This document shows positions 135 through 64,000 of a DNA stretch of 64,000 bases, piece after piece. Made by a program: the position numbers and the translations under genes. The stretch covers positions 5,146,001 to 5,210,000 of the forward strand of contig CM102288.1 of the NCBI GenBank assembly GCA_046563655.1. Direction: 5' to 3'. The notes beneath the pieces were generated by a model. It did not search any database, was not told the origin of the DNA, and saw only the letters and a list, made by a program, of their open reading frames with translations. Origin of the DNA: Yuukianura sp. NJ FZ-2021 (Eukaryota). Each line of letters opens with the position of its first letter. The first letter of the stretch is position 1.

Positions 135-197
135 GTTGTGGGCATTTTCTATATTTTTTAAAGTTTTGTAGGTTTTTTTTAAAAGTTGAACTTATAC

Positions 198-3100
198 CTG
201 CCATTCTAATTTTACTGAAGTAGAAGACGTAGCATACGCTGTTTTTAATAGGACGACAACCGGCGACTCGAGTTGTTCCCGCGCTTTGCTTACGTCATCG
301 CCGGCACTCTGCCGAGTGGAGAACGTAGTTGTTGTGACAGGATCCGAAAGTGGACTGGGAGGTGACAAAATCCCATCAGCACTAACGCTTCTGACGAAAA
401 ACAAGTATTCTGCATTGGGTTTAAGATACTGAAGAGTGGCTGTCTCTATGGATACTGTTGCTCCTAGCAACCACTCTGATTTGACCTCTTGAGCACTGTA
501 GTACTCCACATTAAACGTGATTCTTCTAATCGAGTTTCCTCTACTGGAGAAAGTTGCAGTCGGCAGAGAGGGAGTCGACGATAATTGAAAATCTGAGGGT
601 GTTGACTCGGGAAATTTGAAAAAATTTGTGGGAGATTCATTTGTAGTTTGATTGGAATTGGTTCTGGGCCTGCTTTGAATAATTAGATTGTACCCGCCGT
701 CGTCTTCATCCTCGTCCTCCATTTCCCGCAACTTTTCGACGCCCGTCTCAAACTGCCCCAGTGCCTCCTCATAGTCATTGTCATCCTCATCTTCTTTTGG
801 CGGTTCTTTCAGGTTCAAATTTCCTGAATTTGGATTGTCCGAGGAAAATTTGGCGCCAATTTTCAAATCCATGTCGTCCATCGGTTCATCTCCGAGCATC
901 GGTTCGGTTTTTTCGGAGATTCGCTTTTCCGACTTTTGCTGAGTTTTAATAGTTACCCGGGGTTCAGCTGAATTCGGTTCGACCGAAAAGTACTTTGGGT
1001 GCCAAGCTATAGTGACTGAAGTGGAGTCGACCTTGACAATGTGTGGTTTCATGGGTGAAGGGCGCAGGATATCTCCGTTGGAACTTCCTGGAAAGCCGGG
1101 GTTAAAGTTTGGGGTATTTTGAGACGTAACGGTGAGGAAGCTTCTCCAAACGTATTTGCCCGAGCGTGAAGACGCCACGCACTCGTACATTCCCGCATCC
1201 TCCAAAGTGAGATCTAGAATCAGAAGATCAAACTTCTAAAAATAGAAAAGGGAAGCTCCCTGTGGAAAAAGTCATAAATTGCCCAGCTCATGCTTCATTT
1301 AATCTTGATTGAGTCTAACAAAAATGGCCAAGAACAAGCTGAACAACCCCCTGTAGGCCCCCCGCCAACTTTCTCAGCGGCAATTCCAACTTTTGAACAA
1401 CTTTGTTAAGAACCAACTTTCTGCCAATTTTCATAATTTTTCAAAAACCTAGCGATTTTCAATGTGCAGATTCTTTTTTGGAACAAACGAATTGACAAAA
1501 ATTTTGAATAAATTGTAAAAACTACAACAGAAATTTTGTTACACCGAAACAAGGAGTTTTTGCTCAACAAAATGAAACCCTTAGCCTTAAACCTTTAGCG
1601 CTAAATTCTTATAGTGTTCTATGCTTTTCCTATTGCTGTGTTCCAGTTAATAAATTTTTGAAGGAATTCGGAGAATGTTTCTGAGTCTTTTACTATACTT
1701 TTTAGTGTTCTAGAAACGCAGAGATGCTGGATGCTGGAGATTGAGGAATGTGTAGGTTTTAATTTTCCCAGAGAGAGAGAGAGTTTTGGAGAAAGTTCTC
1801 TTGTTCATCATGTTCCAGATTCTTCATTTCGCCTCAAAACTTTATTCTGTCGATTCAAGATTTCCCGCCAGGCAAAAGTTGAGAGCTGAGCGAACCGACG
1901 AGGGCTGAATCCGAATTTGGCGGAATGAGGGATGAGGGGAATGTGATCCGCATGCAAAGGAATGCGGCAGATGCTTTCTCCTAACCAACCTTCCCCTTAA
2001 CACCACCAATTCCATGTCGCAAACGACAAGGAGCCACTTTCCCTCCAAACGACACAGACAACATCCTTAGCTCGTCTTTCCAGACGTGCCAAAATTCAAA
2101 AGGAGACACGCCCCTCCAAAAGTCATTTCAAACTGGCAGAATTGGTGATTCGGCTTAAGCCGATTCATACAAAACGATCTCAAGAGAACACGACTTTTGA
2201 CAAACATAAATCCTGCATTTATAATTGAAAAGTTTGTTTTTATCAGGGTTCGAAGGCTGTAACTTACGTCCTGTAACTTACGTAACTTACGTACGTAAGT
2301 TACGTAATTTTCAGAGGGGTTGTAATTTTCGAAATTTTCATTCTTTTGAATTTTGAATTTGAATTCTGCTCGAGAAATACCAGGATATTCTTCGAGCAAT
2401 CTGCTCGAGAAATACCAGGATAATTCTCCAGCAGTCTGCTCGAGAAATACCAGGATATTCTTCGAGCAGTCTGCTCGAGAAATACCAGGATATTCTTCGA
2501 GCAGTCTGCTCGGAAAATACCAGGATATTCCTCGAGCAGTCTGCTCGAGAAATACCAGGATATTCTTCGAGCAGTCTGCTCGAGAAATACCAGGATAATT
2601 CTCGAGCAGTCTGCTCGAGAAATAACATGATATTTTTCGAGCAGTCTGCTCGAAAAATACCAGGATATTCTTCGAGCAATCTGCTCGAGAAATACCAGGA
2701 TAATTCTCGAGCAGTCTGCTCGGGAAATACCAGGATATTCTTCGAGCAATCTGCTCGAAAAATACCAGGATATTCTTCGAGCAATCTGCTCGAGAAATAC
2801 CAGGATAATTCTCGAGCAGTCTGCTCGGAAAATACCAGGATATTCTTCGAGCAGTCTGCTCGAGAAATACCAGGATATTCTTCGAGCAGTCTGCTCGAGA
2901 AATACCAGGATAATTCTCGAGCAGTCTGCTCGAGAAATACAAGGATATTCTTCGAGCAGTCTGCTCGGGAAATACCAGGATATTCTTCGAGCAGTCTGCT
3001 CGAGAAATACCAGGATATTCTTCGAGCAGTCTGCTCGAGAAATAGGTTAGGTTAGGTTAGGATTGGTTAGGTTAGGTTAGGAAATTTGAAAAAAATCGGT

Positions 3101-6100
3101 GGTAGTACACGATAGTAAAATTATTCCACCAATTTTTACTTCTAAATATTTTTTTAAGATTCAGAAACAAACATATTTTCGAAAAAAAAATTAAGTTAGT
3201 GTTGCATGAATTATAACTTCAGAAACAATAAGTTACTTTATACTAACTAAGAAATATTTACTCTGTTAAACTGATCGGTAAAGTTTGAGTGGGAGGTGGA
3301 ACATGCCGACATGCGACACCAAAAAAAAGGACGGTGTAAGAGGTGATGAGATTGGAGTAATCATAAGCGAGCCTGAGGAAGAGTTAGATGTGATGGCAAT
3401 GGAATAATTAGTGTTATGTTTCTCGAACTATTTGTGTTAATTGCGTTAAGTGTGTTAGTTTAGTCTTAAAAATAAAATAGTAGTAAATATTGTCTACCGC
3501 AGTATATTTCTATCAAGCCTTGGTTTGATTTTTAACGCAATTAGATAGTAGATATTAATAGTTTATGGTTTGGGGATGGGAGTGGGGTGCAGGCGGCTTG
3601 TTTTGAAAATTACAATCTTACGTAGATTACGTAAGTTACGATAATTACGTAAGTTACGTAGTTTTCGGCAAAAATACCGTAATTTTCGAACCCTGGTTTT
3701 TATGGTTCCCAAAACCGGAAACTATTTATGTGTTCAGTAATCCTAACACGCCGTTGCATATTGTATTTTATCAGTTGATAGGAAAAAATCCATTTTCAAT
3801 ATTTTGGATGCTTCTTTTTCTTTATTTTTTAGTTTGACTTAACGCGACTTATGCTCTAATTAAACTTTCTAACAATAAGTGATGACTCGCAATGTCGACT
3901 CAACAAGAGACGCTTTTTCTCTCAACAATTTCTGTGACCTTTGACCTCTCCCTCGCCAAGCGCTCTCCTCTCTCTCATCCAGGATGAACATTTTAAGGTC
4001 GATTTCTATTCCGCCTCAGTCTTTCCTTTGTCTTTGGCGATGGATCCTGAATGTGGAATCGTGAGTGCATAACTAAGGAGAAATCGGAGGAATCCGACAA
4101 AGCAACTGAGTCGACTTGACGTGAATCTCAAGCAATCCCAAGTGCAATCGGAGTTGAATACAAAAGTAGCTTTTAAGAAATCAGCACACTTTTATGGGGC
4201 TTTCCCCTTTGTCTTTGAAGCACAAATGGACAAAAGAACAGTTGTGCTTTACCGTTAATACGCAGAGTTCCTGCCGCGTCTGTAAAGATGCGGTGATTGA
4301 GGGGGAAGGAGTTGGAATCCTTGTACCATGTGATCACAGGGAGCGGACTTCCTTCTGCTCGACATGGCAACACAGCCACCCCACCTAAACTTCGCGTTTC
4401 GTTACCCGCTCCAGTCAAAATTATCGGTGGCGGTAAATCTTCAATCGGAGTAACCTGAAAAATTATTTGAAAAAAATTAAATTTTTTAAAATCATAGATT
4501 TGCATTCCAATGGATTTTAGTTTTGATTTCCACCAATTTTTGACATCTCTATCACTGACATCACATTAGCAGAGGACTGTTTCAGATTGCCCCAATATGA
4601 CTTTTAAAAATGGCGGGAAAATGTAAACTCTTGAATTTTGTTTTCGTAGAAAGCTTTTGATTGCATTCATTTAATGTAAATGGAAAACAGAGTGGAAATA
4701 CATGTGAGCCGAATGTACTGGCCGGACTAATTTCCTGTTTGAAATTTTGGAATGCGGGAAAATTTTGAATTTTGGCGGTCAATCATTTGCTTACCTTCAG
4801 ATGGATTTTGTGCATAACCGATCCAGCGTACGAAACAGCAGCACAGAACCAAAACCCTTCATCCCGCTCCGACACATTGTCAATCTGCAAATGGAAAAAA
4901 GAGACACCAGATTAGCTTTCCCCTCCGGACACACCGCCCCCACGTCATCTCTCTCACACTATACTTATTATCCACCCCTCCCCACCCACTACTCATATTT
5001 TCCCCCTGCTACTATACCCCCCCCCCCTTACACCCCCAGACCCCCCCCCACCCAGCCTCAATTCAATTAGCTCACAAACTTTGACTGCCTTTCACTTTTC
5101 TCAATTTCCTCAATTACTTTCACCAGAACCTCCTCCGAGCCAAAACTGTCTCCCTGCCAAACCCAATTTCAGAAACTCGGGGTAAAGTCGGAGTATTTCG
5201 ATGAATTTCAGAAAAATGATACTTTTTCGAAAATGTATTTCGAAAAGTAAAAGTTAACTTGATTTTGCGTGGTACCTTGAGTGTTCCGTCCTGGCCAACG
5301 TGCAAGTTATGAGATGACGTTCCTTGGAAAACGACAGAGTGACTTCCTTCTTTGGACCAAAAAAGCGTGGGATGTGGATCTCCCTGAGCAACACACTCAA
5401 ACACTGCACTTTCGTTTGGTTGAAGTTCAAGGTCGTTTGGTTTAACTGTAAAAATGGGTGGAGCTGAAAGGTTCAAAATTTCAAGAAAACGTTTAAGAAA
5501 GAAACTTATTTCTGTTTTTTTTTTTTTTTGATTTCCCAAAGTTTTGCGGCTTACTCAGAATAGTGATTGTGGCAGCAGATACGATGGATCCTGCTTTGTT
5601 CTCAGCGATGCAGCGATAAACTCCGGCGTCTTCTGCTGAAACGTTTGAAATCAAAAAGCGCTCTTCGTCAAACCGAGCTCTTTTGAGCGGCAGACTCCCA
5701 CGCTCCTTATTCCATGAGATTTCCGGTGGCGGATCTCCTCGAGCGACACAAACTACATAAAAGTGAAACCGCGGTCAAAATTTAGAAAATTCAGAATTTT
5801 TAAGAATCCAACACTGTTGTACCTAGTGATACGTCGCTTCCTAAAAGCGCAGACGTATTTGCTGGTACGATTGTAAACTGCGGACGGACGATGACTCTGA
5901 GATGAGCTGGATTTGATTGTCGAAGGCCCACGATACTTTTGGCTACGCAGACGTAGTTCCCCTCATCATCTTCTCGGACGTCCGAAATGCTTAGACTCCC
6001 CAGTCCTAGCACGGTGAATCGCCTAAGGTAGTTAGAATTACGAATTAATTGCAATTCACAAATTCCTGCACGTACTAACGAAAGAATTAATTCTAAAAAC

Positions 6101-25010: not shown

Positions 25011-28000
25011 TTGTTTTTTGTTTACGGTTTAATAGTTAATAGGCAAATGAACAAGCTAAGATTAGTTTTTTAAAACTATCTTTGGATGCTAGGTCGTTCA
25101 CTTTGGGTTGAGCGTTTTATTAAAGTTCGTTGTTTTTAAATTTTGTTTTTCTTTTTGAAGTTTCCGGAACCTAAATTTTTGCATGAAATTGGTTGCACTT
25201 TGTTCCTTAAATTTTTCTTGGAACACAATGAGAAATTGAATCTCATATTTTCATTACGTTTTTATTACACTTTTCCGTCCGCTCCTCAAGCTGTCATAAC
25301 TTTGTTCAAAAAATTAATCTCTACATCTTTCCCTCCCTATCATAAAGGTTTAGAAAATTCAAAGTGTCAAATTGCTTCCGTATGGCAGATCATCATAAAG
25401 TTCAACAAGTTGAGCACTTTTCCTCAAATTTTGTCTATATCCACAAAATTCTCCAAAGTTCATAAATTCCAAAAATCTTGTTTCAGTTTCCAAAAATTTG
25501 GTACAAGTAAAAATGACGCAAGTTTGGCGTGTCGTTCCGGAGAAAAGTGAATTTGTCAAATCTAGTTAAGGAGATAACTAGCTTAGTTTTTTGTCTTTTT
25601 TGTTAGTTTTTTTTTGTCCTTTACTACTATAGTAATAGAACTCTACCAAGTGCATGATGCCAAAAAGAAAGTTCAAAGAAAGTTGAGCCTGCGATAGTTA
25701 CTTCCTCCGTCAGAGAAGAGTTGATTGAATTGGGAAAAAGCAAATCAACTTTCTCCAATCCCACGCTTCAATTTCCCTACGCCCCCGGACTGTCTCTGTA
25801 CTTCCCTTCTGACCCTAATCTCATCACAGTGAAGCCAGATGCCCAGGTCATGAAATCAGAACTTTTCCCGCCCCCGGCTAAAATACAAATTGCATTTGCT
25901 TTTAGCTTCTGCTTCAAATCTCACTTTGAAAAGTTTCTGCAACTGCGCAACTTAATTGGCAGCACTGTGACGCACATTAGCTTATAAACAATTCTGGAAT
26001 TTTGCAATTTTGAAAGTTTTGGCATTTCGATGATTTTTTTGAAGCAGCCGGAAATTAGTGCTATTTACCGACGTTTTGAAATGACAAATGTTTCTCTCAC
26101 TGTGCAAATACTCTAATGACAGCGCAAGACTTTGGAAATTGCGAAATAATTCTTTGCGAGTGCGCAAGATTCCAAGCATCGTGAATAAATTATTGTCTCC
26201 AGTTGTACTTTTCCTCTAAAATGAGCCTAATTATGGACTACGTGGTGGTAATTTCTCAACTAACTTCTACTTCAGTTGCTCCTAAATAAACATAGAAAAG
26301 TAGAGAAAACATGGCTGGATTTGGGCAACATGTAGAGGGCAATTGAGAACGGTGAAACATGTAATTAAGGAACTATTCATTACAACCATTACTCTAATGT
26401 GTTACTTCATGGCAATCAGAATTCCAAAACGCACAACAAAAACTCCCCTCTCGCCCTTTTCTCAGACCCTCCAAGCAGAAACGTTTCCAAATTCAAATTT
26501 ACCCGCTCATTTTCTTTTAAAAAGAAAAAAAATGTAAGTTACGCAAAGGATGAAATGTTTAATCTCTTGTTTCTGAAATATTGTTTGAGATTAACTTTGT
26601 TTCAGAACAACATTGTGAAATCACCAATCGCGTCTGTCCGTCTGTACGTCTGCGTGTTCACTGGACTTTCCCAACGGTTAAAAACGAAAATCAACTCGAA
26701 ATCAATATCGTGTTTTGATTTAGTTTTTAAACGCTTACGTTTGAATTTAATTTCCTTACAAGATCATTTGAAATATTGTTCCAAAGGAAAATCGACGACG
26801 AACTTTCCCAGGTCAAAGTTCAAACGGAAACTGAGGTTAATGAAAACTAGAAATTGGTTGGATTGCCAAAAACGAGTAGCTCTTTGCCCTGAAATTTACA
26901 CTTTTCCATTTGAAATTAAGTTCCTGCTCTGTTTGTTTGAATAAATTTGGAAGTAGCTGGGGGGAGTATTGGAGTCTCACAGTTTGTGATTTGAATTCAA
27001 GTAATCTCGAAATGCATTTACTTTGTAAAAGAAGAGTCACAAGGTTAAAATTAGCTTCGGAGGCTTCATTCTGCAAGTCGTTTGTCAAGGTCCACAACCC
27101 ATGAAATCGCATCCGTCCTCTTCACAGTTTGAATTTCCCTCCACATCTGGTTCCCACTCTTTCCCCATATCCATTCATCTACTTCCTACGCAAATGCATT
27201 TCATTCTTTGAATTATAAAGATGAAACATCGAATCACATTTGTCTAACTTCCTAACACGCGTAAACAAACGCAGAAGAAATCAAAAGTGAGAAAAACAGA
27301 GTCAATTACCGGAAGAAAAAATATTTTCATCAAACTTTTTTCTTACATCAATAACTGCCTTAAAGCTGCTAAAAATTTTGCAAAACTTTATAGAAAAATT
27401 CACTTCCGGATGAACTTTTGCCGAAGTAAAATTTTTTTTTCCTTCGATCCGTTTTATTTTCAATGTTTTGTATTTTTTTCTTTGAAATTTGAAACTTCCG
27501 CTTCTGGGCTTTGAAGTGACCCCATTCGAGGACCCTTAATCCCCGTCGCCCCTTTCAGCACGTCGTAATTAACAGAAGAGAGAGGAGGCGACAGGAAAGC
27601 GTCTTTGAAGTGGAAAGCTTTTACGCCGCTGTGAAAATAAAGTAAACGAACGGTTAGGAGACTCGAGGCGTATTTAGCACGCGATTGCACACAGAAACCA
27701 CTAAATCAACTCTAGAAATCTATTACTCCCAACTTGTATTAAATCTCAAAACTTACTAAAATTCTATAAACTTCTACTTATTTATTAAGCAGCAATAACT
27801 ACTTTATGAGTTTATATCATTCTGTCTGTCTGTCCGTTTGTCATTCATAACTACCAAACTACTACAACTACCGAAATCGTGTCGTAATTGATTTTTAGGG
27901 TTGAATTTCTACGGCTCCGGAAGTAAGAAATGTGTAGATTAGAATAGGCCAATTCCAATGTTCAAGTAAAAACTAAGGTTAAAGTAAAATTTTAACTACA

Positions 28001-47500: not shown

Positions 47501-49241
47501 ATCTCTGTTTTTAGAAATGACAGTGATCATCTCCTACCGTTACACACAAATATACTACATTGTTACATCAACTTTGTTGTAAAAGTTACACAGTTTAGTT
47601 TTACTGCTAAATTAAACAGTCAATGTGACACTCTCAGGTAGTGCTTTCAAACTAATTAAAGCTAATTAGCACTTCAAACTTTTAATTGTTGTAATAGTTG
47701 TGTCATTTTGCTAATGAAGCAACAAATGCATGAGATGCTTTGACTTGTGTAAGATACCAAGTCCTGGCGCTTCACTTTGCTTAAAAAATGTTGAGATCTT
47801 AAGGTGAAAGCTTAATTAAAACTGATAAACCTATCTAGTTTAGGTTATAATTGTGAATCGACTACAGGATTGAAACGATGGAAGTCATTTGTTTCCATTT
47901 GCCCAAATTGAAGCAAAACGCTAACACTAAATTGACATGGTTGTTTGTTTTTTTTTTGACAAAGCACAACTGGGACTTTTTGACCGGATAAAAAAAATCG
48001 TGAAGTTGTTGAAAAGTCCGTTTCGTAACTTGTGCCATTAGGCTGATTGGTGTTTAACTCTTTCACTTTCCAACTCTCAACAGCGAAGAAATGCAATGCT
48101 TTCTCCTGCTAAAGGCCAATTTTCTCACATCACATCCTTCCTTGTTGAAATTCACAGTCCTCTGGATTCGTAAACATAAAAAAAAACTCTTCCTTACTGT
48201 TTTTTTTTAAAGTTTATTAAAATATAAGCAGTCTGGGATATATTTTCGCATGAATTGGTAATCTATCGGTAAAGCCGCAAGCTCAAATACTTTCGTTTCG
48301 GACACCTAACACTATGAATTCAACAGATGTCGCGCAAGCCTTCACTTTCAAACGCTGACTAACTTTGAATATTGATTTTGCCTTATAAATAATTTTAAGA
48401 ATTTATAACTTATGAAGTTTACCATTTACACCATTATTACCTCAGAAAAAAAAAACTTAAGCAGAAAACACATCAGCAAAATACGTCCTTTCCGGTTCCG
48501 GAGATACACGTGCCGAATCATGTCAAAAAGGGCGGCCTTGACCTCATATAACTCCGTTAAGGTCAAACTTTTTTCACGAAAATTTTTCTTTTCAATGGTA
48601 CTTTATTTCTCCAAAATTTGGAAGGGATCAAAAACTGCATGTAACACAAAAAATTTGTTTTTTTAAACATATTTGGCAAATAGTTGCTCTTACGCTGAAT
48701 TCAACCAGTATTTGGAACTTGGCCAATATTTTAACGTTTGCCTATACAATTTGGTCCGTGTGAAAGAGATCAGTGGGCAATGGTGCTTGTTCCATACAAA
48801 GATACCCAAAAAAGCAAAACTCGTGGACGGGAGTCTTGTAACACGTGGACTTAAATTCCTTGCAAAAAAGTTCCTACACTAGATCCCGCTCCCTTGCTAA
48901 ACAAATACGAAGCGTATATAAGCGTTATATTAAGTGCTTAACGCTAAAAGCTTATCGTCATAACGCTGTGGAGACCAGTTCAGCGTTCACCCGTTTTATC
49001 TTTCGTCTTGTTTTGTTCTGTAAATAACATATTCCATTATTTCCTCCTCGCGCCTACAATCCCGAGTCTCAGTTTCTGTTTGGGTATGGAAAGGAGATGA
49101 CACACTCTCACTTTTTGTTACTAACTTGTAACCAGTAGTGTAACACTGGCTTTATGGAAACGTGAGTGGACTAGACAGTAAATGATAGCTCAATCAGACA
49201 TTCTCAGTTTCTTCCTGGATCAAACCTATATTTAGAGCAAC

Positions 49242-52200
49242 ATGGATGGAAAAGAAAAAAGTGATTTGACTAAAACTTCATTGTATGAGTTTCGGCATAA
49301 TCTCGGGTTGCTATTGGATACGCGCTACAAATTGTTGGTAAGTCAAATTAACTAAAAGTTCAGCTTATTTTAATTTTAAACGAAGACGATATCATGATTA
49401 TAACGTGACGCGTACACGTTTAGAGATCAATCACCTCTATAATTTAAGTATACTTTCTTGTTTATGACTGCAGAATAGTATGTAAGGGAGGTTAAAGTGG
49501 TTTAACCTTAATTAAGGAAATACAAAATAATTGTATTTCCTATGTTGGACTTTTAGGAGCTTAGGTTATTGTGTGTGTTTATGCCTCTGTTCTGCCGTGC
49601 CTGTGTGTGTTCGTGAATTTAACTCATTCGTGCGCATGCGCTATATCCACCTAATCTGCGACTAAATTTCTGTCCGGTGCGTAGATACGAGATCACCGAA
49701 GGAATTAATTAATTTGTGATTTCGATTTCTTAAGTAAATTTATTCTCCGTTGTTGAGACTCTCTGTATGTGAACAGCTTCAGTTTTGGTTTAGTTAGACT
49801 GGGAAAAAATATTTAGTACCCAAAACCTATAATGTTAATGTAAATCGTTTAGGGGCTTCATAAACTAAATATTTATATTTTTTTCGGTGTACCTAATGTT
49901 AATCATTGAAACATATTTGGTTTCTTTTATTGCAAAAATTAATATTTGAAAATATTTAAAATGCGTTTGTAAATATTTTTTTCCACTATAACAATTGATT
50001 TTAATTTTCTTAAAGTTTTGGCGCAGGTTGAGTTAGGCTTAAAAGTATAAAGGTATAGGTGGGTTTTGGTGCAAAATTCACCCATTTGCGATTTGGTTTC
50101 ATTTTGTCGGTCTAAAACGATCTGTCCTCTTGCAGGTTTAGTATTCCGAATTGCCGCCGATTTTCTAAAGAAAAGTTGGAGATTCTTCTGTATTAGATTT
50201 GATGCCGATGACGCATACCATCCAACATAACTGGTTACAATAAGTCTATTGTTCACTTTCTAAAAACATAAACTGTGAGTATAAGACAATGTTATCAATT
50301 CACAACGACGGACAACCGTAAATCTAAATTTGTCTTTTACAAATAACGCCCCGGCATATCTTGTTTTTAGCTTTCTTTCTGAACAAAGAACAATAGAAAT
50401 TGGAAAAAATCGCTGCGTTTGAAATTGTTTACATGGTTGTAATGGAGTTGTAAGTTAAATACATCAAATAAGAACAGTCAGCACTGTCACTATCCAAAGT
50501 CGAAAGAGAAAATGATGAGGAAAGAAGGAATGAAGGATGAGAAAAGCACAACAATGTGTTGACCTAGCTTTATTTCTACATTTCAGTTTAGTTTATAATT
50601 AAAAGGCTTATCTTGCTCATTTTTCAAATCGTGGTTTTGTTCTCGTCGTCGTGTGATGACTCAAGCAGAGCGATGGTATGGAATGTGAACATAATTACGA
50701 CGAACCTTGGGGTTTTATGATTTTGAAACTAATTAATTAAAATACGGATTCATGTTTCATTAGACGTTTAATTTTTTTGGGATTTGCAGGGTCTTCAAAT
50801 GTCACATATTGAAAAGGAATATAGTTTCTGGTTCAAGGAACAGATGAAATTGGATTGCCTAGAAACCCATGAAAGTAGCTGGCCGGCATTGTTCAAACAT
50901 GAAAAATTGCTCAAGGACAGATTCTTTGTTGTGACGAAAAATAGCGTCCAATATGTCAAAAGCAACCCAGATAAATTGGGCGAAGACAGTACAGAGCTGT
51001 TCAGTTTTGCCAATTACAAAGAATTGCAACAATGGAGAGCCGGAAACAAAGTAAAGCCATGTACAGCCGAAGCTGGCGTACAAGTATCGTTGCTGCCGCA
51101 ATTTCCAAGTATTGCTGAAGACGTTGCTAAATTTCAAGAAAGGCCTTTCTTACATAGGAGCATTTCATTGGAATCTGGAGCTTCGGTACCAGTAAAAGTA
51201 CAATCGTACAAGTGTGAGGTTGCAGACTGCGCAGTTCTGGCAGAAATACTTCAGGTGGAAGCTGTCACACAAACGTCTCACCGCCGTTTAAAAGATAATG
51301 CCAGTCAAACGTCTTTTCTTCGCCAGCGCCGTTCTGTAGATTCTGGAACTCAAACCGTTACTTCTACTTTAGTGGAAAGCGCAGTTCAAACACCTCAGAG
51401 TCCATTAGTCGCCACTGGAGTACAAACAACTCGAACGGTAAATGCTCGAATTCAAACTCGACCCATTGTGAATTGCTCAAAAATTGGCGCTGGAACTCAA
51501 ACTGAAAACAGTCAGATATCCAGTTCTGGCGGAACTCAAAAGTCCATTGCCAGTAGGGCGCCGACTGGTAATAAAAAATTACAAAAATCGAGTTGCACTG
51601 GAGGGGCTACTGGAAATCAAAATCTTAAAAAATCCAGCTTTGTTGCTGGAAACAGAGAAATTCAAAATATACAAAATTCCAGTGCAGTGAATGCTGAAAT
51701 TCATTTACCAAAGTTCAGTTCCAATTTTGCGCCCGCCAATACTGGAAATGTACAAAGATCTAGCTCGATTGAAGGGACTGCTGAAATACAAAGCTTACAA
51801 AAATCCAGTTCCGTTGGAGGAATCACTCGGAGTCAACGTATCCAAAAGAACAGTTCAATTGGAGTTGAAAGTTCTCAGCATTCCAGTTCTGCTGCAACTC
51901 AAAATCCTAATAAACAGATTACTGTTGGAGTGGATACTAGGACTCAACTGCCACCGTCGTCAAGTCATGATGCAGAAATCAGCGTTCAGACGCTTCCTAT
52001 ACTGACGCTGGAACCCCAGAGTGGAAATGATGAACCTGTTTCAACCTCGCATACGTCTCAACCTTTGGCGTCGTTCCAACCAGTACCAACCATTAGTACC
52101 ACACACGAGATTTCCACTGCTGTAAGTGTACACAAATTAACTAAGCAAGGTTGTGTGGTTTTCGTTTTTTTTAAATATAGATCAGTAAACTGGGTTTAAA

Positions 52201-53140
52201 TCGGGTTTTTATTTGGCATGACTCAAAATTGTGTTAAATCCCGAAAAACAAATGGATTACTAAAGTTGCTTCAAAATGGTTGAAAACGTGATTGCGTTAC
52301 GTTACGTTAGCGTGATGCTTCAAAATACGCGATGCAAATACAATAGTTTGTGAGTCAGCAAAAACAAATCAAATTTTGAAAAAAAAAAATCGGTATATTT
52401 GGCAGCTTATTGTTTGCGAATACAACCCACTTCGTTTAAATCGCCATTTGAATCACGCATTTAAATCAATGGGTTTGAAAATTGATGTTGACGAATATTT
52501 AATGAATTTATTAAGGTCTTTTTTTTTACTCCTAACACTTCTTTTGTTATTCAATTCCTGATTTAGATGGAACCTCAGCCATCAAGCTGCTTGATTTACG
52601 ATTACGGACATTCCAGTTCTTGCAACACAAATTTCAGTGCAAACGAAAGTGGTAGCAAAGCTCCAAATATTACCTCGAACAAGAACGTCGATTACCGTAA
52701 ACCTACCATAATTTCGCAATAAAGCAAAAGCAGCATTCACTTAAATAAATTTGTCAATAGGTGAAGTTGCACCTGGCGATCGGCAACTAGTAACGCCGAC
52801 GCCTAATAAACGGAGATGCAGCGGCGCCGAAGATGATAAAACTCCTAACAAACTTCCAAAGTTTCAACCAACATTCCAACCAATCCACGTACAAAATGAA
52901 TCGGTTGCCAAGCATAAAACAATTGATGACATACCGTTGGAAAATGTATCGGAACTAATACACAGTAGGCCAGAAATCTCTCTCGTAAAAACTGAACAAC
53001 TAGAACAAGAACAACGCCCAAAAATCAATGATGAAGGTGAGAAACTTCCTGACAAATGATTTCTGTTACTTGTGCTAGTTTTTTAATGGTATAATTTAAT
53101 ACAACTTTTAGAATTGAAAACGAAACGCCCTATTTATTAA
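49242..53140 (+). CDS. LOTUS/OST-HTH-like domain protein with a long S/T/Q-rich linker containing multiple TQT motifs (about 620 aa if it ends at 53140)
   Basis: Exons 49242-49337 (MDGKEKSDLTKTSLYEFRHNLGLLLDTRYKLL|GTAAGT), 50790-52121, 52567-52696, 52761-53036 and 53112-53140 are phase-consistent. The spliced N-terminus FRHNLGLLLDTRYKLLGLQMSHIEKEYSFWFKEQMKLD...WPALFK...FFVV fits the LOTUS winged-helix pattern. The domain call is by eye and the 3' end is uncertain. Confidence 0.7.
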
Positions 53141-53813
53141 CTTGTGAAACCCACATTATGATTTTATCTGAATCCGTCTGTCTGTCCATCTGTCACCAAG
53201 AAGGAAGAAACGCGAACCAATATATAAATTACCTTTTAGGTGTTTAATTCTGGCCTTACTGTAGGAATTATAAAAAGTAAACAGTTACTCCACGATCTTC
53301 CTGCTTTTTAAGTAAACTTTAGATACAAAGCTGCGTGTCTGTCTGTCTGTTACGAATAGCTTCTGTTCCTACCTTTTCATATCCATGAATCTCAACTGAA
53401 TTTAAGTACTGTGACAGTGACCTCTCACGTTTTATACAATGATAATTGACAAATGTTGAAAGTTACATCTTATCTCTGCCGCTACTAGCGTATTGCGTTT
53501 CCAACGTTTTAACACTTCTAAGTTTCTCGTCTGGAAAATAAGTCACAATTTTACTCCGTGTTCTCATAATGAACACTCAGGTGAATGCTGAGGCAGGTCG
53601 CGTGTTAATTTATGGAAATAAGGTTTTGAAAGATCACCTTATTTTTGAAATTACATTCTCACTTAAAAGTCCGGAATAAAAAAGGAATTGCTATAAAATT
53701 GGATCCGTAACAATTTACCTAGTAACAAAAGAATTACGCAAACAGAACAGATTTTCGCGCGTCTTCCATTTTTAATTGTGTCAAATAAAACAATGGATAT
53801 TTCACTATTCTAG

Positions 53814-55350
53814 TGTTGGACATGGATATGGAACTTCACAAAATCTTCGTCATGCTTCCGGACCACATTTACCCGAACGCTGAACCGTCACCTCATCGTT
53901 CCAAATCCAGCTCAGTGGATCCCAATGCACTGGTGACGGGCATTGACTCGACATTTCTGGAAGACATGACGAAACTTGTTCAAAAAACTTCCGGACCAAG
54001 ACGGCTCATTGGCTCATCACCAAAGAGTGCCAGGAAGGAGCAATGGATTGTATTTCCCATACAGAACAAAGGACTCGGAATTTATTTGAGTCAGTAATTT
54101 CTAGCAGCTTTTTAAAGCTTTAATTCGATTAAAAAAATTTCTATCTCAAGGAAGAGTAAAATCTAGTAAATCTAAAATTTTTGAATTCTTTACTAAAATT
54201 CCGAATTTGAAATAGGTAACCATGATGGAACACCATTTTTGTGGAAAGGAGATCTCTGGGACCCAAATTTTACGATTCCAGAAGATGGCGTCAATCTTCC
54301 GTTTGTGTTACCACCTTGTTCACTTGTGTACGGAGAATTTTTGGAAATTCGTCAAAAAGTTTCTGCTAAGGTCTTTGTGGAATTCAATATTATTGATGTG
54401 GGGTCCTTCTTAGGAAAAATGCTTGATTCTGAAAATTTCTATGAACGGTAAGCCAACGAACACGTCATCACAATATATACAATATTTCAGTTATATTAGT
54501 TAGATGATACGATCTATCGGGTGTACCAAAAGTCCATGTAAAGCTTTCAGCAATTCCTTGCTCAAAAAGATCGACGTTTTACAAGTAGCATTGAAGGGCG
54601 GGCTTTTCTCATAGCTGCACTTGTAGCATTCTTTTGTGGCTTTATATAGAGTTTTGGTACGCCCGATATTTTATAAACTTCAATTATAAATATTCATTTA
54701 ATTTACATATCCTCAGGTACTCGCTGTGCAGGAATTACTTTGATCGTTATAGCAAAGAACTTGGCCCTTTGACGGGCAAAATGTTTGTAACTATGAAACC
54801 TACGAAGCCACTTCAACACGTCGCAAAGTCTCTCAGTTTGTAAGCTGCAAATATAATAATTGAAACATATTGACATTATTTATGTCAATATAAATTTTGT
54901 CTTCATTTTAATTAATTTAGAATTTTTTTTTAATTTTTACGGTAAAACTCTTTTGAATTGCTAATTTGTTTAAATATTCTTTAGAATAAAGCGGAACGCG
55001 ACTGAGAAAACGTATTATACTAATCGTACCAACACGTCATTGGATGTGTCTGGAGTCGGCCTAATGCAGGTTTACACAAGTAGCGAAAGCAGTAGGAAAA
55101 ATGAATTCCAGTAAGTGTATGCGTCTTGAATTTTTTTTATTTTACTTATTATTATGATGAAATTTTATATTATATACTAATGCTCTTCATGATAATACAT
55201 CATTTTATTGAAATGACGTGTTTCAGATTCGCCATGAGACGACGCTACATTTTGAATATAGAATACTCTTCGAACTCATTCTTAGACACTACGGTAAAAG
55301 AGTTGTCTAAAGTTTTTGTGGACATGGATGCCCAACCACACAGAACTTAA
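53814..55350 (+). CDS. Protein region resembling the C-terminal guanylyltransferase-like domain of cap methyltransferase CMTR1, with no methyltransferase domain; either a separate gene or the 3' part of the LOTUS gene
   Basis: Exons 53814-54089, 54216-54447, 54717-54839, 54985-55110 and 55227-55350 splice in frame. LPPCSLVYGEF, FNIIDVGSFLGKMLDSENFYERYSLCRNY, FVTMKPTKPL and VSGVGLM follow the order and spacing I recall for the CMTR1 GTase-like domain. An alternative own start is possible at 53569 (ATG...GCAG|gtcgcg, phase 1). Confidence 0.7.
54517..54666. mobile_element. Tc1/mariner-type MITE in an intron
   Basis: TIRs tcgggtgtaccaaaagtc / gagttttggtacgcccga flanked by TA on both sides. Confidence 0.8.
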
Positions 55351-56108
55351 GTCTTTGGATTAAGTGGTCGCTAAGTTGTAACAATTCTAAATTATTACGT
55401 TTGTACAATTGTTACGTTCTTTAAGATCCAACTGTGCCGAATGTTCATTTTCAAATTCTGCAGAAACTGATGTTATCTAGTTCAGAGCTAGGTTTATGTT
55501 ACCAATTTCATTTACTTCAAATTTCATGATCGGTTTAAGTATGCTAGTAACTTAATGTTAAAATGAAAGCTGAAATTTTTCGCAATATTTTGAGTTGTTA
55601 TAGATTTTTAAAAGTTATAAGTTGCTAAACTCAAAAATATTCAAAACTAAAATTACAAAATGCTATGAAAAAAATCAGCAACCCTGTCTAAAACTGCGAT
55701 GTTTATGATTTGACGCTCGATATTCCAGTTTTATTGTCTGCGTCATCAATTTCTCACAGAAAAATCATTCCAAGTGCATATTGACAAGACCTTTCAACTT
55801 TCAAACTGCACTCGCATCTCGCATGAAGTTTATTCTATTCTAAAACCTACTCAACCTAAGGACAAAGGCTCACAAAGTTCTAAGACCAGTATGACTAATC
55901 CCTTTAACTAAAAGTCTATTCTTAGTTTACACTTCAGCCTTCTCTTTATTATAAGAGTACGAGCAATTACTTTTCTTCATTTCAAAATCCAACCAACTGA
56001 AAGTGCTTTTGCGCCAATTTCGCTTAGCGTGAGCGATTTCAATTGCAATTTGTGGAGTGACAAACTTTTAAGTTGAGTTTTGAAATTTCGAAAGTAATAA
56101 ACAGAAAC

Positions 56109-58692
56109 ATGGAAACGATAGAAGACCTGGCTGCTTGCAAGCACTATTTGCTATACGGAAATGACACTGCAGCAGTATTTTGTGACACAATTGAGGAGAA
56201 AATGACGGAGCTAACTTATCTCAAGAGGGCAAGTATTAGCTCGGAAGACACAGAGGATTCGGACTGCTCAAATAGAATGAAAAGTATCCAGTCTTCATTG
56301 GCTTCATTTGTTCAACTTTTTCTGGAAATTGTTGTTGGCGATCTGGAAAAGGCGAAAAAGACGCTGGATGAAGTTGAGGACATTATGATGCTGCTTAATT
56401 CAACGGAGTTTGACCAGAACTACCTTCCGGGATTCGAGTACTTGCATGAGTTGGTCAAACTGCACTTCAAACTGGCTTTCCAAAACGTCGCTGGATACGA
56501 AAATGTTGAGAGTGACATCAAGGTACGACATCCACCACCGACTGAGTTGGACTTGAATGCTGAGTACAGTGATTTGGGAAGTCAGAGCAAATGTGTCGTC
56601 GTTTTAGCAAAGTGGATACTAAATCTAACGCAGCTTCGACGTCGTCGTCAAGAAGGACCTCAAATTATGAGAGAGGTAAAAAGAACAGACGGATTTCCGG
56701 AATTTAATAGAAATGATGAGCAACAAGGTTCCGTGACAACGAAAAGTTAATTTTCTTTCACAGGTTGGGTATTACCTCGCTTGACAGAAAAGCGAAAAGA
56801 AAAAAAATAGTATCAATTTTAGTGCCAATCCAAAAAATTGCTACCAATTTATATGCAAAATCTAAAAAATTCGGCTTTATTGCTATGGCTACGATGCCCT
56901 GAAATGAAAGGACACCTTTTTTGCAAAACCGAAAAAAAAACATTAGGTTGTACCCAACCTTTTAAAGAAAATCAAAGTCCTAACGTCCTTTTGAATATGA
57001 ATTGGTAGCAATTTTTTGGATTGGTACTAAAATTGGTGCTAATTTTTTTGCTTTTCTGTCGAACGAGGTAGTACACCCAACATGTTGAAGGAAATTACCT
57101 AACTTTTCGTTGTCACGGTACCTTGTTGCTCATCATTTCTAAATTAAACAGTCGCTAATGTACTTTTTTTTTGTTTAGATTATTGAGCTGGATCGAACGA
57201 ATTGGTACTGGTATAACCTACTGTACAATAGATTGCGTTTCATGAGAAGGAGTTATGGCGATGGTGCTGCCTCAATGTCCTTGCCATCCATGGAGGAGAT
57301 GCAAACAGTGACCGAAGCACTCAAGCACGTCGGCAGTGACCAATCCAAAAGCAGACTCAGATGCAATGCGAATTTGTGTCAGTGTCTTGCGGAAATCGTG
57401 GCTTTCCAGTGTTCCAAAAACAAATACGAACCGGTAACATTGGACAAAACATACGACGACGTTGCCAAAATGGTGGAGCATATCAAAGCATCTGCAATGT
57501 AAATGTTTTGTAATGTTTTTCTTTGTGAAATTCAACAACACATTTTCATACCACTTTTTCTTCGATTGATGTTTATAGGGATGCTTTATCCTCCTCAAAT
57601 TGTGGATTTGCCGAGTACATTCGGTTTGGAGACATTTTTGGAATAATTCTTCCAGTTGACAAGCGCGACTACGTGATGGCTACTGAATTTATCACCACTG
57701 CCAATAAGAAGTATCCTGACAATTCCAAGGGACACCACAAAATGGGTGCCATCATTGTCAATACTGTAAAAATTAAAATACAAATACTAAATTCTCAGTA
57801 CAGTGAAACCCCTCATTTCGCAACACCCTGAGAACACATCCGACCCATTGAACTACCAAATAGTGTTTGTTTTTATTCCGTTTAGAACTGAAGTCTTTTT
57901 AAATTCCATTTTAATTTTAATTCAGTACGTAGGTCTTTGCGGTATATCCGCTCAGGAACGTTGCGCAACGAGGGGTTCTACTGTAACTATATTACGAATC
58001 CAACACTACAAGTTAACTCTAAAATATTTCAGAGAAAGGGCATGGAAAGTGCAATTCACCATTTTGAAGAAGCCGTTCGCTTGGAACCACGCAGTTTCCC
58101 TGCTTGGATGGATCTCCTTCCAGCACTTTTGGGTGACTACAAGAAGAACGAGGTCAAAGTAAACGAAGTTCTGAAAGACGCTCGTAAAGAGACTCAATGG
58201 ACACAGAGTCAGCTCGGAGCGTTCTGTTTTTACGAAGCATCAATCGCATTCCTCACAGGATCCACTGATAGCGCAGTCAAACTGTGGCGGAAGGCGATGG
58301 AACTGGAATACAACGGTTTCAAAGTTGGAAATTGAAAAATTTTAATTTATATGTGCATTTTTGTGAGCGGTGATTAACTTCATGTTGATATTAATTTTCA
58401 GGAACTTGGTAGAATCAGGGCTCGTTTTAGCTGGCCGAAGGACCATCCGTTGACGTTTGACGCTGTAAAAAGTGCCCTTGGCATTTTATCCTTATCCTTA
58501 TCTTTATCCAAGCAACAACCGGACGTACTAGACGAAATTAACAAACTTCGAAGAATTGTGGAAGAAGCACATCAGAAGACATCAGAATTCTATCACCAGA
58601 AAAATGCAAGAGAAAATGGTCAGCGGAGAAGGCAGCAACCAGCTCAACATCGCGCCAGCGCACGGCTGCATCGGAATTCCGCTGGATCTTGA
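56109..58692 (+). CDS. Tetratricopeptide-repeat / alpha-solenoid protein, 551 aa
   Basis: Exons 56109-56675, 57179-57498, 57579-57765, 58033-58323 and 58402-58692 (1656 nt, in frame). TPR-like motifs: GDLEKAKKTLDEV, IIELDRTNWYWY, ANKKYPDNSKGHHKMG, SAIHHFEEAVRLEPRSFPAW, GSTDSAVKLWRKAMELE. Confidence 0.8.
56708..57141. mobile_element. CAAGG-family MITE with long inverted arms in intron 1 of the TPR gene
   Basis: tagaaatgatgagcaacaaggttccgtgacaacgaaaagtt / aacttttcgttgtcacggtaccttgttgctcatcatttcta, with imperfect inverted similarity continuing about 130 bp inward. Confidence 0.85.
57801..57983. mobile_element. pogo/Tigger-like (Tc1/mariner superfamily) MITE in an intron of the TPR gene
   Basis: TA|cagtgaaacccctcatttcgcaac ... 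gttgcgcaacgaggggttctactg|TA. Confidence 0.8.
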
Positions 58693-58876: not shown

Positions 58877-59896
58877 TTAGAATTTCAGCGCCATCACAAT
58901 CGCCACTTCGTCTTCCTTTGCGTTCGGCATCAACTGTTGACCATCCTTTCCGACAAAGTCTCTAAAGTATTTCCGTGCAAGTTCTTCAAATCCGTATTTG
59001 ATCACCACTTTCTGCATAAAGGGACTTGTGAAGGTACTTTTGCAGAGTGGAATTCCACGTGACCTGAGGAGATCAAATGACCTCCTGTAGATTTCTGTCG
59101 CAAGTCCTTGACCTCTGTATTTTGGATCCACACTTGTGAAGATCAATTCTGCATACTCCTGGATACCATAACGCTCGTAGATGTTTATAGATTCATCTAG
59201 ACCAAGAACATTTGCACGAATATCTCCAATTATTTTCGATTTGAAATCCAAGGGAGCCTCTTCTGGGTTATCCGGTCTCTCAATGTAAGTCACCATCACG
59301 CCAGCCACCTACAAAAATAAACATTAACATGAACTTGGCTTTTTAACTGTTCCCAACATGCATGGGTTATATGACCGGGTAATCCAAGTGAACTGGCAAT
59401 AAATCTCAGTGGACCCCAAATCACACGAAGGCTGCAAATGTATGTACCTATGCGATGGGTACAATGGGATAGGATCAATTAGAGCAATACTAAAACTTGA
59501 ACCGGAGGGTACAGCGGGGAGCCCAAGTTTACTTCAACCAATCACAAACAATCTTCATGGAATAAGAAAGTGAAAAAACGACACAAGAACGTATGCACAA
59601 CTTCAAAAATGGCGGCAAAATGTTTTTCTTGAAGTTTGTGATACCTCGCTAGTGGTCTTGTCCAAAGCTAAGAAACTGAGCCTGTCAGTTTCGTTTTTCT
59701 TCAAAATGAGAGCAGCGAAACTTGAAAAATCGTCCAGAAAGTCTGAAGATTCGTAAGCTTTCATGGCCTTCTTGATTGGCTCATCCTTGCAAAAAACGTG
59801 GAGTAAATTTTCAAGGACGCGTTCCTCATCTTCGGGTTCAATCATTTTAAACACAAAGTTTTTCCACTCTCCCGCCACACAACTTGATCCCTCCAT
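58877..59896 (-). CDS. GNAT N-acetyltransferase of the insect arylalkylamine/dopamine N-acetyltransferase (AANAT-like) family, 227 aa
   Basis: Two exons, 59896-59645 and 59308-58877 (phase 0). FCKDEP motif, SFLALD...EVAGV, acetyl-CoA motif VDPKYRGQGLA, and TSPFMQKV...GFE. Confidence 0.9.
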
Positions 59897-60026
59897 TTTG
59901 TGCAAAACTAAACTTCTCCGAAAATTTAGTTCCACCGTAAAAATTTCAAAAACAAACTCAAAATTTCAAAAGTCGAAATAAAATTGAATTGAAGAACAGT
60001 TTCACGACAGCTGTTTCAGTTTTAAG

Positions 60027-60295: not shown

Positions 60296-60741
60296 GTTTT
60301 AAGTGTGATACCACACTTCTGCATAAATTCTGCTCCCATACGATCTCTCTGTTTGACCTCGTAATTCACTAAAAACTTTTTCTTAAAGCAAACTTTTGAA
60401 ATTTGCACTCATGAATTAGGTAGTATACTTAGAAACTTCCACTCAACATGACATTTCGAAAGATTACAAAGTCAATTTCGTCGTCAGAGTCAGAGTTATC
60501 GTGCTATAGCCAATGATGAACACCCTAGAGATAATGAACACAATTTATTACAATAAAGTTATTTAATTTAAATAATAATAATAACTAAAGTATTTAAGTA
60601 TGACGCTAATAAGATCAACACTGAATGAGTTAAAATAAAAAAGCGCACGAGTATACGTTTTTTACTGCGATTTTCCAGTTTATATTTTTTTTAATGTGAG
60701 GAACGTCAGCTTTGACTATGTGTTATTTTCCCTGTTCTTTC

Positions 60742-60860
60742 GCCAAGGTCCATACCACGTTGAAAGCACCAGTTCTCGTCCGATCACTGAAGTTAAGCAA
60801 CGTCGGGCCCGGTTAGTACTTGGATGGGTGACCGCCTGGGAACCCCGGGTGCTCTTGGCT
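60742..60860 (+). rRNA. 5S rRNA: 5S rRNA, copy 1
   Basis: GCCAAGGTCCATACCACGTTGAAAGCACCAGTTCTCGTCCGATCACTGAAGTTAAGCAACG...GTACTTGGATGGGTGACCGCCTGGGAAC...CTTGGCT, followed by an oligo-T Pol III terminator. Confidence 0.98.
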
Positions 60861-60947
60861 TTTTTTTTACCGTCATTTTCCAATTTCTATTTTTTTTGAA
60901 TGTGTACAAGTTGTACTTTGACTGTGTGATATTTTCCTTCTCCTTTC

Positions 60948-61066
60948 GCCAAGGTCCATACCACGTTGAAAGCACCAGTTCTCGTCCGATCACTGAAGTT
61001 AAGCAACGTCGGGCCCGGTTAGTACTTGGATGGGTGACCGCCTGGGAACCCCGGGTGCTCTTGGCT
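60948..61066 (+). rRNA. 5S rRNA: 5S rRNA, copy 2
   Basis: Identical to copy 1; oligo-T terminator. Confidence 0.98.
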
Positions 61067-61154
61067 TCTTTTTTTTTACCGCCATTCTCCAACTTCTTTT
61101 TTTGGAACATGGACAACTTGTACTTTGACTACATGATAATTTCCTTCTCCTTTC

Positions 61155-61273
61155 GCCAAGGTCCATACCACGTTGAAAGCACCAGTTCTCGTCCGATCAC
61201 TGAAGTTAAGCAACGTCGGGCCCGGTTAGTACTTGGATGGGTGACCGCCTGGGAACCCCGGGTGCTCTTAGCT
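61155..61273 (+). rRNA. 5S rRNA: 5S rRNA, copy 3 (one substitution)
   Basis: As copy 1 except G>A at 61270 in the terminal helix. Confidence 0.97.
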
Positions 61274-61362
61274 TTTTTTTTACCGTCATTTTCCAATTTC
61301 TATTTTTTTTTTGAATGTGTACAAGTTGTACTTTGACTGTGTGATATTTTCCTTCTCCTTTC

Positions 61363-61481
61363 GCCAAGGTCCATACCACGTTGAAAGCACCAGTTCTCGT
61401 CCGATCACTGAAGTTAAGCAACGTCGGGCCCGGTTAGTACTTGGATGGGTGACCGCCTGGGAACCCCGGGTGCTCTTGGCT
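61363..61481 (+). rRNA. 5S rRNA: 5S rRNA, copy 4
   Basis: Identical to copy 1; oligo-T terminator. Confidence 0.98.
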
Positions 61482-62004
61482 TCTTTTTTTTACCCACGTT
61501 CTCCAACTCCTTTTTTTTGAACGTGGACACTCATGAGATAAATGCCGATAACCGATAACAAATGATGTACGCACTCACATTAATGCAATCATGCCAAAAG
61601 TTTAAAGAACTCTGGACTTTCCTCCCTCTTTTACGAATATAAAGGTCTTGTTTTTCTTTCCAATGTCGTGTTCATGGCATAGCTCATTTTGTTGCAATTT
61701 TTTGTTTCGTGCTAGAGATCTGGAACCGGATTTTGGAAGTAAACCTTCATTGCTTCATTGGAAGACTGTAGTTTCTCATTTTCAGTTTGATTTCGATTTC
61801 ATAGCTACGCTTTCTTATTGTCCGTGAACTTCCAAACTGTCTGCCTTTTCTTCGTGTGTTTAGAAAATTCACATCGCCATCAACGCCGTGCACAATTTTT
61901 CCACTTCTTTTCTTTCCGCCTGGGGCTAAAGTTTTCCTGTTGTTCATTTATTTTCAATTTCCACTTCAAAGATATAAAAGTGTACAAATTGTGCAATTCG
62001 CGAT

Positions 62005-63991
<1,987 letters not shown>

Positions 63992-64000
63992 GTATGTCAA

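Follow-up and report, generated by a model that had tools for sequence, protein, structure and literature searches.

We analyzed a 64,000-nucleotide (nt) stretch of DNA from Yuukianura sp. NJ FZ-2021 (assembly GCA_046563655.1, contig CM102288.1, positions 5,146,001 to 5,210,000 of the forward strand), referred to below as the window, with attention to a locus at 49242-55350 on the plus strand for which an original prediction had proposed a novel fusion of an N-terminal LOTUS-like domain, a TQT-containing linker, and a C-terminal guanylyltransferase-like (GTase-like) domain of the CMTR1 type. On the evidence of the sequence, the locus is a real, lineage-restricted coding gene, and a periodic row of QT-containing motifs in its disordered central region is the firmest part of the finding. 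The chain of exons rebuilt from the sequence is as follows.

49242 to 49337, + strand: exon 1, 32 codons, from the ATG to the donor TTG/GTAAGT; it would supply helix 1 of the LOTUS-like domain
50790 to 52121, + strand: exon 2, 444 codons; putative remainder of the LOTUS-like domain (50790 to about 50963), then the disordered region
52567 to 52696, + strand: exon 3 (130 nt), from phase 0 to phase 1
52761 to 53036, + strand: exon 4 (276 nt), phase 1 at both ends, with a KRR basic patch at 52808-52816 and the donor AAG/GTGAGA at its end
53814 to 54089, + strand: exon 5 (276 nt), phase 1 at both ends, with in-frame ATG codons at 53822 and 53828
54216 to 54447, + strand: exon 6 (232 nt), which forms the hydrophobic core of the C-terminal block
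54717 to 54839, + strand: exon 7
54985 to 55110, + strand: exon 8
55227 to 55350, + strand: exon 9, with the stop codon TAA at 55348-55350

Joined, the nine exons form one frame of 2715 nt (904 codons and a stop), the exon sum being exactly that predicted, and the junction of exon 1 to the exon at 50790 was confirmed to be in phase 0. All eight introns (1452, 445, 64, 777, 126, 269, 145, and 116 nt, in order) begin with GT and end with AG, with matching phases throughout. Each of the two unused frames contains a stop in every one of the nine exons, so that the chain is a real coding signal rather than a chance open frame, and an in-frame TAG lies upstream of the ATG at 49242. The product falls into three compositional parts, with bulky hydrophobic residues making up 35% of residues 1-130 and 37% of residues 612-904, and S, T, Q, N, P, and G together making up 49% of residues 131-611.

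Relatives were found in none of the searches made, in agreement with the lineage specificity that had been proposed. No homologue was recovered with residues 1-110 of exon 2 among proteins of 30-243 and 244-777 amino acids (aa) or with exon 6 among longer proteins, and no PDB chain matched any exon queried at an E value (E) below 0.6. In metagenome contigs, exon 2 gave 132 pattern matches, none of them a relative, and exon 6 gave 356, including 3 loci that match only 14 residues at 71% and were taken as chance; no second copy of the locus was found within the window, and no noncoding RNA family was found in 48000-56000. The absence of homologues from every collection searched would suit a locus consisting of decaying or transposon-derived open frames with no functional gene, but nine in-phase exons with intact splice sites, 2715 nt without an internal stop, and the lack of a second copy in the window speak against this explanation, and we regard it as very unlikely.

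Motif array and N-terminal domain

The central region carries a periodic array of about 16 units with a period of ~13 residues, in two parts.

51249 to 51548, + strand: eight [TSVI]Q[TK] motifs, candidate LC8 docking sites, with Q at residues 193, 205, 220, 232, 244, 254, 269, and 282 (spacing 10-15 residues)
51549 to 51893, + strand: degenerate units of the [LIV]Q[KNR]SS type with the same ~13-residue period, continuing to residue 384

The motif types in the array are TQT (three), VQT (three), and IQT (one), plus SQT and TQK. The seven [TVI]QT motifs compare with 0.75 expected, a count reached in none of 2,000 shuffles, and the three strict TQT motifs compare with 0.28 expected, reached in 2 of 2,000; Q autocorrelation peaks at lags of 12, 15, and 27. 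The TQT linker is thus stronger than had been claimed. A tandem repeat at the DNA level was not found in the array, which argues that the array is old and that its QT core has nevertheless been kept. As far as the source describes it, LC8 is anchored to its disordered partners by TQT (PMC6607443). Judged from motifs and composition, TQT-type anchors do lie inside a disordered region here, as in multivalent LC8 clients, and the xQT motifs are therefore candidate LC8 docking sites. An alternative assignment of the row as an SQ/TQ kinase-target cluster was dropped, [ST]Q not being enriched (11 against 9.3 expected).

The N-terminal part probably adopts a LOTUS-type fold. In a protein-language-model atlas (Atlas), residues 1-110 of exon 2 lay near OST-HTH/LOTUS clusters, mostly from arthropods, at ranks 1, 2, 3, 9, and 20, the best score being 0.83 on a scale where calibration treats scores under 0.9 as leads only. 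The LOTUS family had been named beforehand, and the 10 best family-bearing matches all agreed, although the same agreement is obtained by a third of shuffled proteins. Cofolding of exon 1 with residues 1-90 of exon 2 gave a score (ipSAE) of 0.56 against 0.09 for the best of three controls, with contacts agreeing at 81% or more between runs and a partner predicted local distance difference test (pLDDT) value of at least 62; the pLDDT of exon 2 was 65-66 with exon 1 and 46-56 with unrelated partners. We take this as weak support: among 78 solved complexes, 51 pass the mark used, as do 2 of 108 mismatched pairs, but scores of 0.60 or under comprise only 5 of those 78 solved complexes and all 4 of the mismatches that passed out of 180. 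The AlphaFold2 model of exon 2 contains a low-confidence helix-helix-strand-strand arrangement at residues 32-58 and a helix at residues 76-83 (pLDDT of about 70); an eLOTUS domain would need a C-terminal helix 5.

Several results weigh against a LOTUS-like head on an LC8-binding linker. The OST-HTH family (Pfam PF12872) was not matched even at E 10 when exons 1 and 2, between which intron 1 splits the domain, were scanned singly, as were all exons in the Pfam searches reported here, and phmmer against the PDB found no LOTUS chain for the LOTUS-like part. AlphaFold2 without an alignment gave residues 1-110 of exon 2 a pLDDT of 44, and a Foldseek search with that model was empty (best E, 0.88). 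Our own profile of 63 bacterial OST-HTH domains also failed to match the joined product (hhalign P, 0.66); this profile is blind to animal LOTUS domains, its 16 rows from the PDB including only two bacterial structures and no animal LOTUS chain, so that its negative result carries no weight. As for the linker, 4 of the 7 [TVI]QT motifs are VQT or IQT, the motifs are units of one old repeat and so are not independent, and numerous TQT peptides fail to bind LC8, according to the part of the literature consulted (PMC6607443). These points could be taken to mean that the N terminus is not a LOTUS domain, that the xQT row is a decayed low-complexity tandem repeat with no LC8 function, and that the protein is a fast-evolving disordered orphan: neither profile nor structure confirms LOTUS, the recurrence of motifs within one periodic repeat would amount to a single event, and the [ST]Q count is reached by 632 of 2,000 shuffles. 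We consider this improbable, given that the family named in advance was returned as the top Atlas neighbor, that exon 1 raises the fold confidence of exon 2, and that the QT core persists in eight successive units although the DNA repeat has decayed. The claim of a LOTUS-like domain stands on its Atlas neighbors and on the weak cofold, and falls short of a Pfam profile match on the exon pieces.

Possible junction between exons 4 and 5 and the C-terminal block

Whether the first four exons continue into the last five depends on the partner of the donor after 53036, for which two acceptors compete: that at 53112, after a 75-nt intron, and that at 53814, after a 777-nt intron, which yields the 904-aa product. 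The signals that bear on the choice were located by motif scan, apart from the short exon.

49204 to 49209, + strand: TCAGTT, which resembles the Initiator consensus and lies 36 nt before the ATG at 49242; possible transcription start of the upstream gene
53112 to 53140, + strand: alternative short terminal exon after the 75-nt intron, adding nine codons and giving a 620-aa product that ends in ELKTKRPIY
53675 to 53680, + strand: AATAAA, which may serve the upstream gene as polyadenylation signal; another lies at 53784-53789
53692 to 53698, + strand: TATAAAA, candidate promoter of a separate downstream gene, 130 nt upstream of the ATG at 53822

The short last exon thus exists as described, with its intron and product. 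It had been said to stop inside a Helentron-like remnant, a description that was not confirmed, the sole in-window match being one of 65 nt at 75% between 53131-53195 and 27779-27843. Each of the competing acceptors is closely preceded by a 25-nt stretch starting TTTTTAAT (53080-53104 and 53769-53793, 76% identical), which probably reflects chance or a shared branch-point-like composition; a duplicated acceptor region was rejected, since pairs this short reach such an identity by chance.

An organization as two adjacent same-strand protein-coding units, both without detectable relatives, has in our estimate an even chance of being correct. The AATAAA at 53675, the TATAAAA at 53692, the in-frame ATG at 53822, and the 75-nt intron fit two genes at least as well as a fusion. 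The 75-nt intron is near in size to the 64-nt intron 3 of the same gene, and the ATG at 53822 lies 8 nt inside exon 5, two codons after the acceptor, and would give a 290-aa product. The 758 nt between the stop at 55350 and the ATG of the next gene at 56109 indicate that spacers of such a size separate genes here; with that gene, three same-strand units would follow one another head to tail, some 0.76 kb apart. Some observations run counter to the two-unit organization. The donor after 53036 is near consensus, so that a downstream exon is likely, and it was confirmed to be compatible with the acceptor ttctag/TG at 53814, phase 1 to phase 1, which is richer in pyrimidines than that at 53112. 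No Initiator motif was found in 53037-53830, a short upstream ATG with six codons occurs at 53793, and AATAAA or TATAAA arises easily in DNA with a guanine-plus-cytosine (GC) content of 37%.

A single gene, with the donor at 53036 paired to 53814 and a main product of 904 aa comprising a LOTUS-like head, the LC8 array, and a C-terminal globular block of whatever fold, seems to us a possible but distinctly less probable outcome. Besides the splice sites and the missing Initiator before exon 5, this organization is favored by the frame, which closes seven codons into the intron and stays open across five further exons after the 53814 junction. It appears to be joined by phase compatibility and nothing else, however, and a phase match has a one-in-three chance of occurring at random; the Met-Asp-Met at the start of exon 5 and the run of AATAAA, TATAAAA, and the alternative intron suit a gene boundary. 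A more specific version, in which the fusion is real, the LOTUS domain is true, and the C-terminal block is an inactive guanylyltransferase fold of the CMTR1 type that holds RNA 5' ends, is very unlikely. In its favor, the block looks strand rich by eye, and Lys-Gly-Leu-Gly, Tyr-Gly-Glu, and Ile-Ile-Asp-Val may follow the order of nucleotidyltransferase motifs that we take to be I, III, and IIIa; the Atlas lead to LOTUS also fits. Against it, none of exons 5-9 matched any Pfam family at E 10; phmmer searches of the PDB with these exons gave only chance rows (E of about 0.8-3, none below 0.79) from a PDB copy in which a full-length CMTR1 chain was not confirmed; and exon 6, searched by phmmer against 1.84 billion representatives, gave four matches, none credible and all to internally repetitive proteins. 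Single-exon queries of 40-91 residues have low power, and remote homology could have been missed by them. The G-patch, RrmJ methyltransferase, and WW domains of CMTR1 likewise found no Pfam match on any exon. In the Atlas, exon 6 adjoins Band 7 clusters with a score of 0.91, 113 shared features, and a recognition of 1851, each of them weak, and its AlphaFold2 model, made from this exon alone, has a pLDDT of 40.6. The CMTR1-type domain is therefore unsupported, no sequence signal having been found in the five exons.

Neighboring genes and repeats

By its sequence the window is animal DNA, most probably from an arthropod, and its GC content ranges from 33 to 43%. Matches to known families identify several other genes.

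192 to 5554, - strand: Ig/FN3 receptor-type gene, represented by exons with matches to Ig_3, I-set, and fn3, and resembling roundabout-type guidance receptors
56109 to 58335, + strand: TPR gene for an orphan-looking protein whose C-terminal part is of the TPR type (TPR_2 at E 4e-5, below the cutoff)
58877 to 59965, - strand: GNAT acetyltransferase gene (Acetyltransf_1, E 2e-5)
63460 to 63999, + strand: carboxylesterase exon (COesterase, E 7e-6)

The plus strand carries four tandem 5S rRNA genes at 60742-61481 (Rfam RF00001, 105-109 bits each) in a 207- to 208-bp repeat that spans 60710-61529, and the long open frames on both strands of this interval are artifacts of the array. A 35-bp minisatellite at 2365-3044 (19.4 copies, 91% identity) adjoins the Ig/FN3 exons; it is open in several frames on both strands, and its open reading frames of 230-330 aa are spurious. 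An interstitial (TTAGG)n tract of 7.8 copies occupies 3043-3082, a unit that is the arthropod-type telomere repeat and agrees with an arthropod origin.

Proposed mechanism and precedents

We suggest that, in the two-unit organization, the upstream unit would comprise exons 1-4 and the short exon at 53112-53140 and encode about 620 aa: a putative N-terminal LOTUS-like winged-helix domain split by intron 1, followed by about 480 disordered residues that hold the eight motifs and about eight degenerate units. LC8 dimers may dock on successive motifs of two chains and so zip a parallel ladder, which would present two LOTUS-like heads side by side to RNA or to a DEAD-box helicase partner, by analogy with the role of LC8 in Egalitarian and ASCIZ. 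The downstream unit, from the ATG at 53822 to 55350, would encode in five exons a hydrophobic, apparently strand-rich orphan of 290 aa with its own TATA-type promoter, and the 53036-to-53814 splice may occur as a minor read-through form. A single 904-aa, lineage-specific dimeric scaffold, in which an LC8-zipped ladder of up to 16 units would carry two LOTUS-like heads and two inactive nucleotidyltransferase-like domains that bind RNA ends, and which would reinvent the logic of Oskar and Egalitarian from unrelated parts, is a bold extension to which we give little credence.

The closest parallel in architecture is Egalitarian of Drosophila, which, as far as the sources describe it, has three LOTUS-like domains, flexible linkers, a dead exonuclease-homology domain, and a dynein light-chain site that promotes dimer function (PMC13186709; bioRxiv 10.1101/2021.05.12.443861). 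The locus would share with it a putative LOTUS-like winged helix, a flexible linker, and a candidate LC8-type site, but within the same descriptive limits it differs in its single LOTUS-like domain and its 8-16 motifs in a row, where Egalitarian has three domains and one C-terminal LC8 site. No Pfam family of the Egalitarian exonuclease type was matched, the sole exonuclease row being 3e2v at E 0.67 (chance level) against the LOTUS-like part, and orthology with Egalitarian was dropped for lack of an exonuclease match on the exons. In Oskar, a LOTUS dimer is presented to Vasa, and the eLOTUS subclass has a C-terminal extension (helix 5) and binds the C-terminal RecA domain of Vasa, in the account available from that source (PMC5458760). 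If the fusion were real, the locus would resemble Oskar in its N-terminal LOTUS domain, disordered linker, and C-terminal globular domain; the OSK-type (SGNH-like) family was not matched on any exon (Pfam, E 10), however, which led us to drop orthology with Oskar also, and the C-terminal block here appears strand rich. We know of no LC8 array in Oskar.

Multivalent LC8 clients such as ASCIZ/ATMIN have at least seven sites, and Drosophila ASCIZ has seven, going by what the cited texts set out (PMC10046861, PMC5963919). So far as that comparison extends, ASCIZ/ATMIN and the locus both have a disordered region with numerous TQT-type motifs set close together; ASCIZ is, however, a zinc-finger transcription factor, and no zinc finger was matched here by Pfam. 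TDRD5/Tejas, TDRD7/Tapas, MARF1, and Caenorhabditis elegans MIP-1/2, insofar as the sources cover them, likewise combine LOTUS with long disordered regions as germ-granule scaffolds, whereas the locus has a single LOTUS-like domain, and the Tudor, NYN, and RRM families were unmatched by Pfam. Likeness to the C-terminal part of CMTR1 is confined to the by-eye order of nucleotidyltransferase-like motifs, sequence similarity being undetectable. A literature search returned no paper linking LOTUS with LC8 or TQT or LOTUS with CMTR1. The architecture, which the original prediction did not recognize from known proteins, is nonetheless less unprecedented than was claimed: Oskar and Egalitarian both pair LOTUS with a dead enzyme, and Egalitarian already adds an LC8 site, the one precedent for LOTUS-like domains with LC8. 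The novelty would lie in the long and regular LC8-type array that follows one LOTUS-like head; a guanylyltransferase-like tail would add to it only if the fusion and the fold both prove correct.

In summary, the locus is an orphan with one solid feature, its motif array, and three open claims. Germ granules are organized by LOTUS proteins, which also activate helicases of the Vasa type, and disordered clients are usually forced into parallel dimers by LC8. Were the fusion real, LOTUS would here be paired with a dead enzyme fold for the third time independently. If true, a LOTUS-like head placed on a long, regular LC8 ladder would offer a compact natural test of whether dimerization, when forced, is enough by itself to make a LOTUS scaffold work, as has been proposed for Egalitarian.

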